NCBI RefSeq assembly: GCF_013122565.1
Contig: NZ_CP053258.1
Length of the DNA stretch: 64,000 bases
Direction: 5' to 3' (one strand)
From: Escherichia coli
GTDB taxonomy: Bacteria; Pseudomonadota; Gammaproteobacteria; Enterobacterales; Enterobacteriaceae
The position numbers were made by a program, and so were the translations under genes. A model generated the notes under the pieces. It searched no databases. It was not told the origin of the DNA and saw only the letters and a list, made by a program, of their open reading frames with translations. Below, piece after piece: positions 34,450 to 59,680 of this stretch (its first letter is position 1; each line of letters begins with the position of its first letter).

Positions 34450-36099
34450 GTGAACTGGCGCAGAATCGTCTGGCTATTGGCGTTGGTTACTCAGCCAACG
34501 CTTGCGGAGGAGACGCCGTTACAACTGGCGCTGCGGGGCGCGCAGCACGATCAACTGTATCGGCTGTCGTCATCAGGCGTGACCAAAGTCTCGGCATTAC
34601 CTGACACGCTCACCACGCCGTTAGGGAGTTTGTGGAAACTGTATGTTTACGCCTGGCTGGAGGATACCCATCAACCGGAGCAGCCCTACCAGTGTCGCGG
34701 AAACTCCCCGGAAGAGGTTTATTGTTGTCAGGCTGGGGAGAGCATAACGCGCGATACCGCGCTGGTACGTTCCTGTGGGCTCTATTTTGCGCCGCAGCGG
34801 TTGCATATTGGCGCAGATGTGTGGGGGCAATACTGGCAACAGCGTCAGGCACCTGCGTGGTTAGCGTCTCTTACTACGCTGAAGCCAGAAACCTCGGTAA
34901 CGGTTAAATCGCTGCTTGATTCATTAGCGACGTTACCTGCGCAAAACAAAGCTCAGGAAGTCTTACTGGATGTGGTGCTGGACGAGGCGAAAATCGGTGT
35001 CGCATCCATGCTCGGTAGTCGGGTACGGGTGAAAACCTGGAGCTGGTTTGCCGATGATAAACAGGAAATCCGTCAGGGTGGTTTTGCTGGCTGGTTAACC
35101 GATGGTACACCGCTGTGGGTTACTGGCAGTGGCACCAGCAAAACGGTACTAACCCGTTATGCGACGGTGCTTAATCGGGTTTTGCCAGTGCCGACGCAGG
35201 TTGCCAGTGGGCAATGTGTAGAGGTGGAGCTGTTTGCCCGCTATCCGCTGAAGAAAATCACAGCGGAAAAGAGTACGACGGCAGTAAAACCCGGCGTACT
35301 TAATGGGCGCTATCGTGTGACATTTGCCAATGGTAACCACATTACGTTTGTCAGCCACGGTGAGACGACCTTACTGAGCGAAAAGGGCAAACTGAAATTG
35401 CAGTCGCATCTCGATCGTGAAGAGTATGTTGCCAGAGTTCTGGATCGCGAGGCGAAAAGTACGCCACCTGAGGCAGCGAAAGCCATGACCGTGGCGATAC
35501 GCACTTTTTTACAGCAAAACGCCAATCGGGAAGGCGATTGCCTGACCATCCCTGACAGCAGCGCCACGCAGCGTGTTTCGGCTTCGCCAGCGACCACGGG
35601 GGCGCGAACGATGACCGCCTGGACGCAGGATCTCATCTATGCGGGCGATCCGGTTCATTATCACGGCAGTCGCGCTAGCGAAGGGACGCTTTCCTGGCGG
35701 CAAGCCACGGCCCAGGCGGGGCAGGGAGAGCGTTACGACCAGATACTCGCGTTTGCTTATCCCGACAACAGCCTTAGCCGCTGGGGAGCGCCACGCTCAA
35801 CCTGCCAGTTATTACCCAAAGCGAAAGCCTGGCTGGCGAAAAAAATGCCGCAGTGGCGGCGTATATTACAAGGCGAGACAGGGTACAACGAACCAGACGT
35901 GTTTGCGGTCTGTCGTTTAGTCTCAGGTTTCCCCTATACCGATCGGCAGCAGAAACGGCTGTTTATTCGTAACTTCTTTACGCTTCAGGATCGGCTGGAT
36001 TTAACCCATGAGTATCTGCACCTGGCCTTTGATGGTTATCCCACCGGGCTTGATGAGAACTATATCGAAACGCTGACCCGACAATTATTAATGGACTAA
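34450..36099 (+). CDS. yfaQ: DUF2300-family exported protein
   Basis: 549 aa; GTG start immediately after yfaS TAA stop; signal peptide. Confidence 0.75.
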   Translation: MNWRRIVWLLALVTQPTLAEETPLQLALRGAQHDQLYRLSSSGVTKVSALPDTLTTPLGSLWKLYVYAWLEDTHQPEQPYQCRGNSPEEVYCCQAGESITRDTALVRSCGLYFAPQRLHIGADVWGQYWQQRQAPAWLASLTTLKPETSVTVKSLLDSLATLPAQNKAQEVLLDVVLDEAKIGVASMLGSRVRVKTWSWFADDKQEIRQGGFAGWLTDGTPLWVTGSGTSKTVLTRYATVLNRVLPVPTQVASGQCVEVELFARYPLKKITAEKSTTAVKPGVLNGRYRVTFANGNHITFVSHGETTLLSEKGKLKLQSHLDREEYVARVLDREAKSTPPEAAKAMTVAIRTFLQQNANREGDCLTIPDSSATQRVSASPATTGARTMTAWTQDLIYAGDPVHYHGSRASEGTLSWRQATAQAGQGERYDQILAFAYPDNSLSRWGAPRSTCQLLPKAKAWLAKKMPQWRRILQGETGYNEPDVFAVCRLVSGFPYTDRQQKRLFIRNFFTLQDRLDLTHEYLHLAFDGYPTGLDENYIETLTRQLLMD

Positions 36100-36880: not shown

Positions 36881-36934
36881 TCCATCCCTTCACACAACCT
36901 GGCGCTCTCTTTTTTCAGATAAGACTGCTGGGCG

Positions 36935-36978
36935 ATCTGCCGACGCCAGGATATAACCATTAACAAGCGTCGGCAGAT
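36935..36978. other. Perfect 12-bp inverted repeat with 20-nt loop at the yfaP-rcsC junction
   Basis: atctgccgacgc ... gcgtcggcagat. Confidence 0.6.
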
Positions 36979-37151
36979 TGGTCATTTCTTATTCGTACTG
37001 AGAACTGTCCATTTACTCTGGCTTTCCTGGTTAAGGCAATGGTTTCCAAGCGATACGCATTATTGCAATGGTGACAGAACATTGCGGTAACACGCTTTTA
37101 CCGCTACCTTAACCACACTCCATCGGTCACCTGAGGCGGAGCTTCGCCCCT

Positions 37152-40001
37152 TTGAAATACCTTGCTTCTTTTCGTACAACCCTGAAAGCCTCGCGCTACA
37201 TGTTCAGAGCATTGGCGTTAGTGCTCTGGCTGTTGATTGCTTTTTCATCCGTTTTTTACATCGTTAATGCGTTACATCAGCGAGAATCGGAAATTCGTCA
37301 GGAATTTAATCTGAGTTCCGATCAGGCTCAGCGCTTTATTCAACGCACCTCTGATGTGATGAAAGAGCTGAAGTACATCGCTGAAAATCGCTTATCGGTA
37401 GAAAACGGTGTGCTTTCCCCGCGTGGACGAGAAACGCAGGCAGATGTGCCTGCGTTTGAACCGCTGTTTGCCGACTCCGATTGTTCCGCAATGAGTAACA
37501 CCTGGCGAGGTTCTCTGGAGTCATTGGCGTGGTTTATGCGCTACTGGCGCGATAATTTTTCTGCGGCTTACGATCTCAACCGGGTATTTTTAATCGGCAG
37601 CGATAACCTCTGCATGGCCAATTTCGGTCTGCGTGATATGCCAGTGGAACGCGATACCGCGTTGAAAGCTTTGCATGAACGCATCAATAAATATCGAAAT
37701 GCACCACAAGATGATAGCGGCAGTAACCTCTACTGGATCAGCGAAGGTCCGCGCCCTGGCGTCGGGTATTTTTACGCGTTGACGCCAGTTTATCTGGCGA
37801 ACCGGTTGCAGGCGCTTTTGGGTGTCGAGCAAACCATCCGGATGGAGAACTTTTTCTTACCGGGTACGTTGCCGATGGGGGTTACCATTCTTGATGAAAA
37901 TGGTCATACCCTGATTTCGCTTACCGGACCAGAAAGCAAAATTAAGGGCGATCCTCGCTGGATGCAGGAACGCTCCTGGTTTGGCTATACGGAAGGGTTC
38001 CGGGAGCTGGTGCTGAAGAAAAATCTGCCACCCTCATCGCTAAGCATCGTGTATTCGGTGCCGGTTGATAAGGTGCTGGAACGCATTCGCATGTTGATCC
38101 TTAACGCAATTTTGCTGAATGTGCTTGCCGGAGCTGCATTGTTTACTCTCGCGCGGATGTACGAGCGACGTATTTTCATTCCGGCGGAAAGCGACGCCCT
38201 GCGACTGGAAGAACATGAGCAGTTCAATCGCAAGATTGTCGCCTCCGCGCCAGTGGGTATCTGCATTTTGCGTACCGCTGATGGCGTCAATATTTTAAGT
38301 AACGAACTGGCGCATACCTATCTCAATATGCTTACGCATGAGGACCGCCAACGACTGACGCAAATTATCTGTGGGCAGCAGGTCAATTTTGTTGATGTCC
38401 TGACCAGCAACAATACCAATCTGCAAATCAGCTTCGTCCATTCGCGCTATCGTAATGAAAACGTGGCCATTTGTGTGCTGGTGGATGTTTCTTCGCGCGT
38501 GAAGATGGAAGAGTCGTTGCAGGAGATGGCACAAGCAGCGGAACAGGCGAGCCAGTCAAAATCGATGTTCCTTGCCACCGTCAGTCATGAGCTGCGAACG
38601 CCGCTGTATGGCATTATCGGTAACCTGGATCTTTTGCAAACCAAAGAGTTACCGAAAGGCGTCGATCGTCTGGTGACGGCAATGAACAACTCTTCCAGCC
38701 TGTTGTTGAAAATTATCAGCGATATTCTCGATTTCTCGAAGATTGAATCGGAACAGTTGAAGATCGAACCGCGTGAGTTTTCACCGCGTGAAGTGATGAA
38801 CCACATCACCGCCAACTATTTACCGCTGGTGGTACGCAAGCAGTTAGGCTTGTACTGCTTTATTGAACCGGATGTGCCAGTGGCCTTAAATGGCGACCCG
38901 ATGCGTTTACAGCAGGTCATCTCCAACCTGTTGAGTAACGCCATAAAATTCACCGATACCGGCTGTATAGTTTTGCATGTCCGCGCTGATGGCGATTATC
39001 TCTCTATCCGTGTTCGCGATACCGGCGTGGGGATCCCGGCGAAAGAAGTGGTGCGCTTGTTTGATCCCTTCTTCCAGGTCGGAACGGGCGTACAGCGAAA
39101 CTTCCAGGGGACCGGTCTGGGTCTGGCGATTTGTGAAAAACTGATCAGCATGATGGACGGCGACATCTCGGTAGATTCAGAACCGGGAATGGGCAGCCAG
39201 TTTACCGTGCGTATTCCGTTGTACGGCGCTCAGTACCCGCAGAAAAAAGGCGTGGAAGGGTTGAGTGGTAAACGCTGCTGGCTGGCGGTCCGCAATGCGT
39301 CACTCTGTCAGTTCCTGGAAACCAGTTTGCAGCGCAGCGGCATCGTCGTAACAACATACGAAGGGCAGGAACCGACTCCCGAAGATGTGTTAATCACTGA
39401 CGAGGTAGTGAGTAAAAAATGGCAGGGCAGAGCGGTAGTGACCTTCTGTCGTCGACATATTGGTATTCCGCTGGAGAAAGCGCCAGGGGAGTGGGTACAC
39501 AGTGTGGCTGCTCCGCATGAGCTACCGGCATTGTTGGCGCGTATTTATTTGATCGAGATGGAGAGCGACGATCCTGCTAACGCTCTGCCGTCGACGGACA
39601 AAGCGGTCAGCGATAATGACGATATGATGTTTCTGGTCGTGGATGATCATCCGATTAACCGACGTCTGCTGGCAGATCAGTTGGGATCGTTGGGCTATCA
39701 ATGTAAAACCGCGAATGATGGCGTCGATGCGCTTAATGTACTTAGCAAGAATCATATTGATATCGTGCTTAGCGACGTCAACATGCCAAATATGGATGGT
39801 TACCGCTTGACGCAACGCATTCGTCAGTTGGGACTGACGTTGCCGGTAATCGGAGTAACTGCTAATGCGTTGGCTGAAGAGAAGCAGCGGTGTCTGGAGT
39901 CCGGTATGGACAGCTGCCTGTCGAAGCCGGTAACGCTGGATGTGATAAAACAGACGCTGACGGTATATGCCGAGAGGGTCAGGAAATCGCGGGAATCGTA
40001 G
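37152..40001 (+). CDS. rcsC: Rcs phosphorelay hybrid sensor histidine kinase
   Basis: 949 aa; HisKA H-box (SHELRTPL), HATPase and C-terminal receiver domain; apparent TTG start. Confidence 0.92.
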   Translation: MKYLASFRTTLKASRYMFRALALVLWLLIAFSSVFYIVNALHQRESEIRQEFNLSSDQAQRFIQRTSDVMKELKYIAENRLSVENGVLSPRGRETQADVPAFEPLFADSDCSAMSNTWRGSLESLAWFMRYWRDNFSAAYDLNRVFLIGSDNLCMANFGLRDMPVERDTALKALHERINKYRNAPQDDSGSNLYWISEGPRPGVGYFYALTPVYLANRLQALLGVEQTIRMENFFLPGTLPMGVTILDENGHTLISLTGPESKIKGDPRWMQERSWFGYTEGFRELVLKKNLPPSSLSIVYSVPVDKVLERIRMLILNAILLNVLAGAALFTLARMYERRIFIPAESDALRLEEHEQFNRKIVASAPVGICILRTADGVNILSNELAHTYLNMLTHEDRQRLTQIICGQQVNFVDVLTSNNTNLQISFVHSRYRNENVAICVLVDVSSRVKMEESLQEMAQAAEQASQSKSMFLATVSHELRTPLYGIIGNLDLLQTKELPKGVDRLVTAMNNSSSLLLKIISDILDFSKIESEQLKIEPREFSPREVMNHITANYLPLVVRKQLGLYCFIEPDVPVALNGDPMRLQQVISNLLSNAIKFTDTGCIVLHVRADGDYLSIRVRDTGVGIPAKEVVRLFDPFFQVGTGVQRNFQGTGLGLAICEKLISMMDGDISVDSEPGMGSQFTVRIPLYGAQYPQKKGVEGLSGKRCWLAVRNASLCQFLETSLQRSGIVVTTYEGQEPTPEDVLITDEVVSKKWQGRAVVTFCRRHIGIPLEKAPGEWVHSVAAPHELPALLARIYLIEMESDDPANALPSTDKAVSDNDDMMFLVVDDHPINRRLLADQLGSLGYQCKTANDGVDALNVLSKNHIDIVLSDVNMPNMDGYRLTQRIRQLGLTLPVIGVTANALAEEKQRCLESGMDSCLSKPVTLDVIKQTLTVYAERVRKSRES

Positions 40002-40211: not shown

Positions 40212-40862
40212 TTAGTCTTTATCTGCCGGACTTAAGGTCACAGAAGAGAGATAATTCAGCAGGGCGATATCGTTCTCGACACCCAGCTTCATCATCGCAG
40301 ATTTCTTCTGGCTACTGATGGTTTTAATACTGCGGTTCAGCTTTTTAGCGATCTCGGTCACCAGGAAGCCTTCCGCAAACAGGCGCAGAACTTCACTCTC
40401 TTTTGGCGAGAGACGCTTGTCACCGTAACCACCAGCACTGATTTTTTCCAACAGGCGAGAAACGCTTTCCGGGGTAAATTTCTTCCCTTTCTGCAGCGCG
40501 GCGAGAGCTTTCGGCAGATCGGTCGGTGCACCTTGTTTCAGCACGATCCCTTCAATATCCAGATCCAATACCGCACTAAGAATCGCCGGGTTGTTGTTCA
40601 TAGTCAGAACAATGATCGACAGGCTTGGGAAATGGCGCTTGATGTACTTGATTAAGGTAATACCATCGCCGTACTTATCGCCAGGCATGGAGAGATCGGT
40701 AATCAACACATGCGCATCCAGTTTCGGCAGGTTGTTGATCAGTGCTGTAGAGTCTTCAAATTCGCCGACAACATTCACCCACTCAATTTGCTCAAGTGAT
40801 TTGCGAATACCGAACAAGACTATCGGATGGTCATCGGCAATAATTACGTTCATATTGTTCAT
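40212..40862 (-). CDS. rcsB: Rcs response regulator (LuxR/FixJ family)
   Basis: 216 aa from ATG 40862 (MNNMNVIIADDHPIV); receiver domain plus C-terminal HTH. Confidence 0.95.
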   Translation of the reverse strand: MNNMNVIIADDHPIVLFGIRKSLEQIEWVNVVGEFEDSTALINNLPKLDAHVLITDLSMPGDKYGDGITLIKYIKRHFPSLSIIVLTMNNNPAILSAVLDLDIEGIVLKQGAPTDLPKALAALQKGKKFTPESVSRLLEKISAGGYGDKRLSPKESEVLRLFAEGFLVTEIAKKLNRSIKTISSQKKSAMMKLGVENDIALLNYLSSVTLSPADKD

Positions 40863-40878
40863 GTAATAGGCTACCTTG

Positions 40879-43551
40879 CTACAGCAAGCTCTTGACATAA
40901 CTGTCAATGTCGCTGATGTATTTTTCTATTCCTGGAACATCCTTCTCACGAATCAGATGTTCCAGCGTTTCACATAACTGCTTGCCGGGTACCAGATTTA
41001 GCATGGCAAATACGCCTTTAAGACGATGAGCCGTTTGGGCTAACGCAGCAAAGTCACTGGTTGCTGCTTCAGTATACAGCCTCTTAACATCATCCGGTAC
41101 TGTGTCTACAAAGAGCGCATAATAGCCGCTGGCATGGAGTTGCGCATTTTCATCTCCGCCCAGAGGCGATTCTGTCACCTCTTCCTGCGCCAGTTGCACT
41201 TCAATTAATTGTAAGACCGCTTCCTGCATAGCGTTGCTCATATTGAAGTTGACGCACAATTGACCAGGCCCAATTTCCCGTACGCCAGACTCATCATCGC
41301 TTAAAAGCAAGCCAGAGGCAGTAAGATTAGACGGATTATCCGTTAAAAAGATATCATAATCTTGACTAATTAATCTTTCATCGGGTGTGATACAGGTTGC
41401 ACCCCAATTTTCTAACTGGCGAGTGACAATATTCCGAATTTCTGCCGAAGTAACATCCACCATTACGCAGACATCATCCAGTAAACGCTCTTCTTCCTCT
41501 TCAACTTCCGGGTCAGCTGCGAGCATTTTGATATGCACAGAGTAGCGTGTACCAAGCCCATCCCGCGTTTTGATGTTTAAATGACCGCCCAGTTTACGCG
41601 CCAGTTGATCGCTCAGCCAGAATGCCAGCGGGTCCGCCTTGCCATAGCGATCGTTTTGGGTCTGGTTGATAAACGGGAAGTGCAAATTATCCATTTCATG
41701 AATACTTACGCCTTCTCCCGTGTCCAGAATGCGGAACGTCAGGCGGTCTTCGGAGGACTCATCCTGATCAACCTCAAGGGTGATTTTTCCCAATTGCGTT
41801 GAGGTCACGGCATATTGCATCAGTAGCAGCAAAATACGTCGTAAGGCATCGCGATCGCCGCGGCGCATATCGTGTGCTTTCAGATGATTGTTAATCAGCA
41901 GTTGCAGACCTTTACGCTTGATGGCAGGCAACACTGAAGGCACAACTTCATCAATTAAATCCTGCACGGAGAACAGCACCGTCTCACTTTTCCAGCTATC
42001 GTCCGCAAGCATGTTCGCTAACTGTATTTCATCGACCAGCCGCACCAGCACATCTGCCTGATTCGCCAGTTGTTTGCTTTCCGGGGCGTTGAGTTTAGCC
42101 GCGCTCTCCGCCAGGGACTGTGCGGGTTCTTTCAGCGCATCGCCAATGTTTTTCATAAAGGTCATCCGCCCCTGCTGGTTTTTCTCATACAGACGCTGCG
42201 CCTGCTTGAGTTTCTTGTTTACCAGCACTTCGCGATCCTGATCGCGAATAATGAAAATTTGTGTGCGCGGCGCAACCTGGCTGCGGAACATGCGGATCTC
42301 ATACAGCTCGTTATTGATCGTCGCCTGAATAATCCCCTGATGCTGTTCCGCCATGGTGGTGATGTTTTGCAGATTCAAATGCGGCAGCAAATGATCGGCA
42401 ATTTTGTTACTTATGACAGTGCGGTTCGATTCCTGATCGTGAACCAGCAGGCCGAGCGGCAGCAGTGAGACTATCTCTTCATTAATTGCCCGTAAAATGC
42501 GCAATTCGTTATTGACCGCCGTGTTGGGTAGACTTTCTGTACTGCGACTGGAGAAATGGCGGAATGTGGTATAGCCAAATAACGCCAGCGCCAGCAAACC
42601 GATGTTCAGCAGCAGTGGCAGCAGAATGTTTTGCAACGTATCCAGCAATAAGGTGCCATAAGGAACCTGCCAGACCAGGCGCATATCGGTAGAGTTGAGT
42701 GCCGAGGAGATTTCAATCTTCGTACTGTTAAAGTGGATACTGACGCTATCCGTCCCTTCTTTCTCATTATCATTGTTTCCCGTTGCCGTCGCGTCTGGCT
42801 CAAGGCGGAAACTGTCCAGCGGCATACCCGGTGGGATCAAATCATTAATCGGCAGATCAAAAGCCACGACCGTTGCCAGATGTCCCGGCTGGTTGAACGT
42901 GGTACGCAAGGTAAAGTAATGACCGTTCTGCCAGGCCAGGCGGCGCATGTTAGAAAAACTTTCGCGTTCATCGAGGGCGTTGGCCTGTTGCAACATCTCT
43001 GCACGACGTGAATCAACAATGTCACTGACGGTCGATTCTTTAAATCCGGAGGTGAGATCTTTGAGGGGCAGGGTTGAGATCAGCACCAGACTGTTATCCT
43101 GACCATTCAGGTAATACATCGACCACGGTACATTTTCTGCGCCCCACAATGTATCCAGATAAGTGGACATCCGCTGAGTCATCTCAAGCGTTGAGTTGTC
43201 GTGAGAGCCAAAGATTAACGCTTCCGTTTTGCGACGCGGTTTTTCCAGATAGTAGACATCCTGTTTCAGGCGCGTCTCTTGTAAACCTTCGCCGGAGGAG
43301 GGGGAGGTCGTCGCGGCAATGTTGTCGTAGATCTGCCAGGTCACGTAACGCCAGGTATCGACGCGCTTTTGGATTGCGTGGGTAATGTCGACAATCTGGT
43401 AACTTTTATCTTTCAGCCAGGCGTTAACGGCGCTTTGTACCATTACACCCATCGTCACCAGTAACACAATGATCAACAGTAAAAAGAAGCGGGTAATGCT
43501 CCCCGGTAGGAGTGAAAAGCGGGTCGTGGCCGTTGTCTCTTTCTGACGCAT
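40879..43551 (-). CDS. rcsD: Rcs phosphotransfer protein (HPt)
   Basis: 890 aa; two N-terminal TM segments, degenerate kinase-like core, C-terminal HPt. Confidence 0.92.
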   Translation of the reverse strand: MRQKETTATTRFSLLPGSITRFFLLLIIVLLVTMGVMVQSAVNAWLKDKSYQIVDITHAIQKRVDTWRYVTWQIYDNIAATTSPSSGEGLQETRLKQDVYYLEKPRRKTEALIFGSHDNSTLEMTQRMSTYLDTLWGAENVPWSMYYLNGQDNSLVLISTLPLKDLTSGFKESTVSDIVDSRRAEMLQQANALDERESFSNMRRLAWQNGHYFTLRTTFNQPGHLATVVAFDLPINDLIPPGMPLDSFRLEPDATATGNNDNEKEGTDSVSIHFNSTKIEISSALNSTDMRLVWQVPYGTLLLDTLQNILLPLLLNIGLLALALFGYTTFRHFSSRSTESLPNTAVNNELRILRAINEEIVSLLPLGLLVHDQESNRTVISNKIADHLLPHLNLQNITTMAEQHQGIIQATINNELYEIRMFRSQVAPRTQIFIIRDQDREVLVNKKLKQAQRLYEKNQQGRMTFMKNIGDALKEPAQSLAESAAKLNAPESKQLANQADVLVRLVDEIQLANMLADDSWKSETVLFSVQDLIDEVVPSVLPAIKRKGLQLLINNHLKAHDMRRGDRDALRRILLLLMQYAVTSTQLGKITLEVDQDESSEDRLTFRILDTGEGVSIHEMDNLHFPFINQTQNDRYGKADPLAFWLSDQLARKLGGHLNIKTRDGLGTRYSVHIKMLAADPEVEEEEERLLDDVCVMVDVTSAEIRNIVTRQLENWGATCITPDERLISQDYDIFLTDNPSNLTASGLLLSDDESGVREIGPGQLCVNFNMSNAMQEAVLQLIEVQLAQEEVTESPLGGDENAQLHASGYYALFVDTVPDDVKRLYTEAATSDFAALAQTAHRLKGVFAMLNLVPGKQLCETLEHLIREKDVPGIEKYISDIDSYVKSLL

Positions 43552-53203: not shown

Positions 53204-53698
53204 GTGAAGATTGATGCATCCCGTCGGGGCATACTCACTGGTCGCTGGCGCAAAGCCAGTAACGGTATCCGTCCGCCCTGGTCCGGTGATGAATCTCATT
53301 TTCTGACCCATTGCACCCGCTGCGACGCCTGTATTAATGCTTGTGAAAACAACATTCTGCAACGCGGCGCGGGTGGCTATCCGAGCGTTAATTTCAAAAA
53401 TAACGAGTGCAGCTTCTGTTACGCCTGCGCGCAGGCTTGCCCCGAATCGCTATTTTCTCCGCGCCACACCAGGGCCTGGGATTTGCAGTTCACCATTGGG
53501 GACGCGTGCCTGGCGTATCAGTCAGTTGAATGCCGCCGCTGTCAGGATAGCTGTGAGCCAATGGCAATTATCTTTCGCCCGACGCTCTCCGGGATCTACC
53601 AGCCGCAACTTAATAGCCAACTTTGCAACGGATGTGGAGCATGTGCAGCCAGCTGTCCGGTATCAGCCATAACTGCGGAGTATCTCCATGCACACTAA
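53204..53698 (+). CDS. napF: Ferredoxin-type protein NapF
   Basis: 164 aa; several Cys clusters; GTG start with GGAAGG SD. Confidence 0.9.
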   Translation: MKIDASRRGILTGRWRKASNGIRPPWSGDESHFLTHCTRCDACINACENNILQRGAGGYPSVNFKNNECSFCYACAQACPESLFSPRHTRAWDLQFTIGDACLAYQSVECRRCQDSCEPMAIIFRPTLSGIYQPQLNSQLCNGCGACAASCPVSAITAEYLHAH

Positions 53699-59056: not shown

Positions 59057-59680
59057 GTGGGTATGCTTGAAGCCAGAGAGTTACTTTGTGAGCGGGATGA
59101 ACGAACCTTATTTAGTGGCTTGTCATTTACGCTGAACGCAGGAGAGTGGGTACAAATCACCGGTAGCAACGGCGCGGGGAAGACAACGCTTCTCCGTTTG
59201 CTGACGGGGTTGTCTCGCCCTGACGCAGGCGAGGTTCTCTGGCAAGGGCAGCCCTTGCATCAGGTACGCGACAGCTACCATCAAAACCTGTTATGGATAG
59301 GCCATCAGCCGGGGATCAAAACCCGGCTGACGGCGTTAGAAAATCTGCACTTTTATCATCGCGATGGCGATACCGCACAATGTCTGGACGCCCTGGCGCA
59401 GGCCGGGCTTGCCGGATTCGAAGATATTCCTGTAAATCAACTTTCTGCCGGACAACAACGCCGCGTCGCTTTAGCGCGTTTGTGGCTGACCCGTGCCACG
59501 TTATGGATCCTCGACGAGCCTTTTACCGCGATTGACGTTAACGGCGTCGATCGTCTGACCCAGCGTATGGCGCAGCATACGGAGCAGGGGGGAATTGTGA
59601 TTCTGACTACCCACCAGCCGCTCAACGTTGCTGAAAATAAAATTCGCCGCATTTCACTGACGCAAACGAGGGCCGCATGA
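59057..59680 (+). CDS. ccmA: Cytochrome c maturation ABC ATPase
   Basis: 207 aa; Walker [10 protein letters not shown]; GTG start. Confidence 0.92.

Follow-up and report, generated by a model that had tools for sequence, protein, structure and literature searches.

Translation of rcsC in Escherichia coli begins at a TTG codon 16 codons ahead of the first in-frame ATG, and this TTG is invariant in 113 species while the Shine-Dalgarno element before it is not conserved, which is the point that our analysis adds to the picture. The stretch of E. coli DNA under study (hereafter the window) spans 64,000 nucleotides. Decoded as formyl-methionine, the TTG opens the 949-residue RcsC, the hybrid sensor kinase of the Rcs envelope-stress phosphorelay, in which the first 19 residues are a conserved basic cytoplasmic tail that precedes transmembrane segment 1. 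Initiation at this TTG is directly documented, and we hold the overall reading, in which selection may also have kept the initiation region weak, with high confidence.

The rcsC reading frame and its product

In the list of open reading frames, the TTG at 37152-37154 on the + strand opens a frame of 949 codons that ends at 40001. The N-terminus of its product reads (M)KYLASFRTTLK, and the residues that follow the start are KYLASFRTTLKASRY before the ATG at 37200 is reached. An in-frame TAA lies 14 codons 5' of the TTG, and no in-frame ATG, GTG or TTG is found between the two. The features that define the frame are the following:

37110..37112, + strand: in-frame TAA, the upstream boundary of the frame (from the reading frame)
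37152..37154, + strand: TTG initiation codon of rcsC (earliest canonical start past the in-frame stop, RefSeq and K-12 CDS start, conservation, N-terminal peptide)
37152..40001, + strand: rcsC coding sequence, 949 codons plus stop (ORF list, Pfam, NCBIfam NF008099)
37200..37202, + strand: ATG at codon 17, the rival start, an internal Met (ATG in 5/110 species, no Shine-Dalgarno pairing upstream)

The sequence-only reading had already placed the first in-frame ATG 16 codons past the TTG (MFRALALV), and this is right, with codon 17 being the earliest in-frame ATG. It had also named GTG as the start of three other genes in the window, and for each of these (napF at 53204, yfaQ at 34450 and ccmA at 59057) the GTG is the RefSeq start of the orthologous gene.

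The product is the RcsC hybrid sensor histidine kinase of the Rcs phosphorelay, for which every gene-identity feature that we tested was found. Pfam domains comprise HisKA (residues 470-534), HATPase_c (581-690), RcsC ABL (709-799) and Response_reg (828-936), and hydropathy peaks at residues 20-41 and about 314-334 mark two transmembrane segments that flank a periplasmic domain. The NCBIfam RcsC equivalog NF008099 matches with 1838 bits (cut-off 920) and aligns residues 1-948 with profile positions 1-948 of 949.

UUG is one of three canonical bacterial start codons, and the sequence alone is insufficient to settle where rcsC starts because an upstream in-frame TTG arises by chance in many genes. 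The neighboring locus provides such a case. The rcsC gene is convergent with the rcsD-rcsB operon, which occupies minus-strand frames directly downstream (rcsB at 40212-40907 and rcsD at 40879-43551, with names taken from the RefSeq annotation of the same locus). Taken at its longest, the rcsB frame would begin at TTG 40907, but the true start is ATG 40862, 15 codons later, which has been confirmed by the N-terminal peptide MNNMNVIIADDHPIVLFGIR (PMC13245402). An upstream in-frame TTG is thus weak evidence when taken alone, and rcsC called for separate lines of evidence; comparative data and published experiments indeed lift its TTG above chance. The proposal that rcsC initiates at TTG 37152 is borne out by RefSeq, the equivalog match, all 113 relatives, coding periodicity, and a published peptide together with Ribo-RET.

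Annotation and genomic context

RefSeq starts rcsC at this TTG both in a genome without the ato operon, like the window, and in a genome with it, and the K-12 MG1655 gene (b2218, NP_416722.2, complement 2317027..2319876) is annotated from the same codon. The locus of the window is matched by 5423 of 5426 complete E. coli genomes, and in 5402 of 5422 the identity over the 81 nt around the TTG (-40 to +41) is 99% or more. The window lacks the ato operon, and yfaP lies 5' of rcsC in the same orientation, an arrangement shared with about 1540 of the 5426 complete genomes, whereas a divergent atoS is found upstream of rcsC in K-12. Apart from this difference, the two genes are alike: the 81 nt at the start are identical to those of K-12 rcsC (b2218; UniProt P0DMC5 as cited in PMC13245402 Table S1), and so are the TTG start, the length of 949 residues, the domain set and the full-length RcsC equivalog match. 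The TTG start of rcsC is therefore already known from the curated K-12 annotation, the NCBI family model and the published N-terminal peptide, though our literature search found no discussion of the rcsC start codon.

Published experimental evidence

N-terminal proteomics or initiation profiling had been proposed as a check on the TTG, and published data of both kinds put the start there. The TRAINSPOTTER N-terminomics study of E. coli K-12 (Nucleic Acids Res 2026, PMC13245402) lists rcsC b2218 in row 477 of its Table S1 with the annotated TTG start. The N-terminus there is the peptide MKYLASFR, which covers residues 1-8 of 949, and both Ribo-RET (in BL21) and REPARATION support the start. The 60-nt context given in that row is identical to the window at about 37122-37181. 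Overall, the study confirmed 10 TTG starts by peptides, including that of ribosomal protein S20 (PMC13245402). No second rcsC N-terminus is reported there, which is uninformative because a start at M17 would give the peptide MFR, too short to detect.

The start codon across relatives

GTDB species representatives, one genome each, were searched with a degenerate DNA pattern that encodes the motif D-[VI]-x-x-[DE]-x-K-Y-[IVM]-[AT]-x-N-R. This anchor is 201 nt past the TTG, so the scan made no demand on the start codon or on the 16 codons in dispute. The motif had been chosen from a protein search with the first 340 residues, the matches of which were mostly fragments and were used for this choice only because starts set by gene callers are not independent evidence. 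All 120 scan matches are rcsC, and 110 have enough upstream sequence. These 110 loci come from many genera of Enterobacteriaceae, Erwiniaceae and Yersiniaceae, among them Escherichia, Salmonella, Citrobacter, Klebsiella, Raoultella, Enterobacter, Kluyvera, Kosakonia, Cedecea, Buttiauxella, Pantoea, Erwinia, Mixta, Serratia and Yersinia.

All 110 of these Enterobacterales genomes have TTG at the start position, and so do three more distant relatives (43-52% identity over the first 340 residues; one is a Sodalis praecaptivus record), which brings the count to 113 of 113 phylogenetically related species. Codon 17 is far more variable, with CTG in 71 of the 110 species, CTT in 23, ATG in 5, TTA and TTG in 4 each, CTA in 2 and TTT in 1. 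Because leucine at codon 17 varies freely among its synonymous codons, the TTG at the start position is not behaving as a leucine codon. The ATG at codon 17, judging from this distribution, is an ordinary internal methionine of recent origin in Escherichia and a few more lineages.

The three-base signature of coding constraint sets in precisely with the TTG, and codons 2-16, the segment in dispute, show it most strongly. Entropies at codon positions 1/2/3 are 1.77/1.70/1.68 over the 20 codons upstream of the TTG, 0.29/0.24/1.23 over codons 2-16, and 0.66/0.37/1.24 over codons 17-67.

The N-terminal tail and transmembrane segment 1

The part of the protein at stake between the two candidate starts is described by two features:

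37155..37208, + strand: basic cytoplasmic N-terminal tail, codons 2-19, KYLASFRTTLKASRYMFR (charge count, conservation)
37209..37274, + strand: transmembrane segment 1, residues 20-41, ALALVLWLLIAFSSVFYIVNAL (Kyte-Doolittle hydropathy)

The 19-residue Kyte-Doolittle maximum of 2.52 falls on residues 20-38 within an uncharged stretch from 20 to 41, and the tail (residues 2-19) holds five K/R and no D/E. No other part of the first 67 residues is conserved as well as the tail, which has a mean majority-residue fraction of 0.90 compared to 0.80 for transmembrane segment 1 and 0.74 for residues 42-67. The sequence-only reading held that a start at the ATG would cut into the first transmembrane segment, which is wrong: by hydropathy, M17 lies three residues ahead of it. 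An ATG start would instead spare the segment and delete a 16-residue cytoplasmic tail that carries K2, R8, K12 and R15, that is, four of the five positive charges. That the tail forms an amphipathic helix is only suggestive, with a hydrophobic moment of 0.48 that is reached by 8.7% of shuffles.

The Shine-Dalgarno element and the upstream region

Two further features lie upstream of the TTG:

37133..37141, + strand: Shine-Dalgarno-like element GAGGCGGAG, lineage-specific (ends 10 nt before the TTG, anti-Shine-Dalgarno duplex -7.6 kcal/mol)
37082..37110, + strand: putative weak sigma-70 promoter, TTGCGG, 17 nt, TACCTT (predicted)

The Shine-Dalgarno-like element is the sole one before the TTG in the window and is reasonably strong in its pairing, though with a long spacing, which the TRAINSPOTTER table gives as 11 (PMC13245402). 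The representatives of Escherichia, Citrobacter and Salmonella have it, as do some other Enterobacteriaceae. Conservation of both the TTG and an upstream Shine-Dalgarno element in relatives had been proposed as a check; the TTG is conserved in all 113 species, and 71 of 110 species have no 4-nt Shine-Dalgarno core at -20 to -5. Over the species, the median anti-Shine-Dalgarno duplex energy is -3.05 kcal/mol, close to the -2.5 of shuffles. A Shine-Dalgarno element is not obligatory for initiation. Upstream of the ATG at 37200, no pairing of this kind was detected (-0.1 kcal/mol). RNA structure that sequesters the rcsC start was ruled out (z = +1.22; 182 of 200 shuffles fold at least as well).

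Further upstream, 41 of 107 loci share an invariant core ACCGCTAC (37100-37107 in the window) that is 43-55 nt ahead of the TTG, and in most of these it sits inside a longer TTTACCGCTACYTTA-like block preceded by TTGCGr. A scan with the sigma-70 consensus gave no site at threshold, and the putative promoter at 37082-37110, which would give a leader of about 35 nt, scores below it. The palindrome GCGGTAA-N7-TTACCGC at 37084-37104 was considered as a regulatory site and dropped, as it is not conserved in other genera.

Alternative readings and the case for a weak start

That the ATG at 37200 is the sole start, giving a protein of 933 residues with the TTG as a mere mechanical opening of the frame, was the original 1990 reading of rcsC. 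ATG is the strongest type of start codon, but at codon 17 it is present in only 5 of the 110 species and lacks a Shine-Dalgarno element before it. An upstream in-frame TTG can be spurious, as at rcsB, and a revised start would fit the version number.2 that the K-12 protein record carries; still, codons 2-16 of rcsC are under stronger protein-level constraint than the next 50 codons, and the peptide MKYLASFR has been observed (PMC13245402). By the peptide and the conservation, the ATG as sole start is effectively excluded, and a minor second start at this codon in Escherichia is possible but unsupported. Another reading accepts the TTG as the start and ascribes its invariance to a constraint on the nucleic acid, with TTGAAATA as a putative protein or small-RNA site or as a target of CsrA-type control. 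The third base of codon 2, almost always AAA, is nearly invariant (entropy 0.13) although AAG is synonymous, but this is also expected if A-rich sequence past the start aids initiation. The GGA of the Shine-Dalgarno-like element lies in or beside a small GGCG...CGCC hairpin in the window, but the region has no significant structure. A putative CsrA site has been proposed upstream of the Salmonella rcsC start codon, though rcsC mRNA is not among the mapped Salmonella CsrA targets (PMC7241856). The lack of cross-family conservation 5' of the TTG (entropy about 1.7 bits) makes this reading less convincing as a cause of order-wide invariance, and we regard it as quite improbable.

The TTG might also be a start without adaptive meaning, an inherited state of which a change would have little effect, with the level of RcsC being set by the promoter and by mRNA features. 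TTG starts form an ordinary minority among E. coli genes, and TTG alone does not mean low expression since the abundant S20 uses it and is among the 10 starts confirmed by peptides (PMC13245402). Synonymous sites are near saturation, however (third-position entropy 1.2-1.9 bits), and ATG or GTG has arisen in none of the 113 lineages, with which neutral persistence of the TTG is hard to square. We consider this reading unlikely, while allowing it some chance. From the same observation, that saturated synonymous sites coexist with no switch in any lineage, it may be argued that a stronger start has been selected against, which would fit a scarce sensor kinase; on this point we see the chances as close to balanced.

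Our preferred reading is that the rcsC initiation region is intrinsically weak, combining, as we infer, a UUG codon with a Shine-Dalgarno element that is distant (10 nt) or, in 71 of the 110 species, absent, to which the weak-looking putative promoter probably adds. Selection would have kept initiation weak, in line with the complete lack of switches to ATG or GTG though both are one base away. The weak start may plausibly hold the bifunctional kinase/phosphatase low relative to RcsB; the sequence-only reading had likewise suggested that a weak start keeps RcsC levels low, and this fits the invariance of the TTG and the lack of a conserved Shine-Dalgarno element. Our literature search for the copy number or abundance of RcsC found nothing usable. 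As a tentative proposal, for which we see slightly less than an even chance, the initiation region could be a deliberately weak, order-wide conserved translational set-point, with UUG held in all sampled lineages, most of them without a Shine-Dalgarno element. If so, the kinase-to-regulator ratio of the Rcs system would be set partly at the start codon, and a change from TTG to ATG would mis-set envelope-stress signaling. With the TTG invariant over 113 species and the Shine-Dalgarno element not conserved, rcsC is therefore a clean candidate, and one that is readily tested, for a two-component sensor in which selection acts on the weakness of the start codon.

Comparison with other non-ATG starts

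As in rcsC, the near-cognate UUG is decoded as initiator methionine in peptide-confirmed TTG genes such as rpsT, of which the annotated TTG start is confirmed by an N-terminal peptide, and in Salmonella sirA/uvrY, for which a TTG start is used in the literature. The rpsT gene, which encodes an abundant protein, has a GGAG core 8 nt from its TTG, whereas the Shine-Dalgarno element of rcsC is distant or, in most species, missing. The gene of IF3, infC, has an autoregulated AUU start codon against which IF3 discriminates. Like rcsC, it has a conserved non-AUG start for which a role in setting or regulating the amount of the protein has been put forward; unlike for infC, nothing here points to feedback control of rcsC translation.

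The position of the rcsC start carries little weight for discovery and is of practical value for work on RcsC. The 949-residue form is the one on which constructs, deletions and residue numbers should be based, and truncating RcsC to the ATG would strip the most conserved stretch of its N-terminal region.

The yfaP-rcsC spacer and its history

The window lacks the ato operon (atoSCDAEB), which in K-12 lies upstream of rcsC, the gene of the Rcs phosphorelay hybrid sensor kinase; yfaP precedes rcsC by 271 nt and is read in the same direction. Three features mark the interval between the two genes:

36882-37075, yfaP-rcsC spacer of 194 nt
~36900-36918, T-run directly after the yfaP stop codon
36935-36978, perfect inverted repeat within the spacer, with 12-bp arms (ATCTGCCGACGC / GCGTCGGCAGAT) around a 20-nt loop

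Among 5426 complete E. coli genomes, just 1541 carry this spacer, with identities of at most 96.4% among the matches listed and below 99% in all 1541, and the rcsC start region of the window is identical to that of the spacer-carrying E. coli genomes. The match to ato-containing genomes restarts at ~37073-37076, immediately upstream of the putative -35 element described below. The inverted repeat and the T-run may represent either a terminator or a deletion scar. In more distant relatives, a Sodalis record and a metagenomic contig, rcsC directly follows gyrA (loci L124, 1-604, and L126, 1-515); therefore, the yfa genes that precede rcsC in the window were inserted later into a neighbourhood of gyrA and rcsC.

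Conserved elements around the rcsC start

Two conserved elements flank the TTG start codon of rcsC:

37082-37110, promoter-like block TTGCGr - 17 nt - TACYTT
37155-37208, rcsC codons 2-19, cytoplasmic N-terminal tail MKYL(A/V)SFRTTLK(V/I)SRYLFR of RcsC

The promoter-like block is kept in 41 of 107 Enterobacteriaceae loci, 43 to 55 nt upstream of the rcsC TTG, and harbors an invariant core, ACCGCTAC, that is in most loci part of a longer TTTACCGCTACYTTA-like block. The promoter-like element scores under the threshold of a consensus promoter scan; as a putative promoter, it would give rcsC a predicted leader of ca. 35 nt. Because its conservation exceeds what a -10 element needs, the block may double as a regulator site. 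Downstream of the start codon, the N-terminal tail shows the highest conservation within the first 67 residues of RcsC from Escherichia to Yersinia and Pantoea, and codon 2 (AAA) hardly varies at its third base.

Start codons and N-termini of other genes in the window

Three further genes have start codons or N-termini of note:

40212-40907, minus strand, rcsB frame
40879-43551, minus strand, rcsD frame
59057-59065, ccmA start, annotated as GTG

The longest rcsB frame begins with TTG at 40907, and the true start is the ATG at 40862. Internal N-termini without Ribo-seq support are listed in the TRAINSPOTTER table of E. coli K-12 N-terminomics for both rcsB (AAG, residue 149) and rcsD (CTG, residue 552, giving a proteoform of 339 residues) (PMC13245402). 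For ccmA, an ATG follows just two codons past the annotated GTG (VGMLEAR) and Shine-Dalgarno pairing is almost nil (-3.3 kcal/mol); this GTG start is less secure than the start of rcsC.

Several public records among the compared rcsC loci look mislabelled. The start region of a metagenome-assembled genome named Pseudomonas sp. UBA4617 (L097) is almost identical to that of Leclercia sp. 29361 (L106), the sequence of Enterobacter cancerogenus M004 (L055) is of Pantoea type, and that of a metagenome-assembled genome labelled uncultured Raoultella (L107) is of Citrobacter type.
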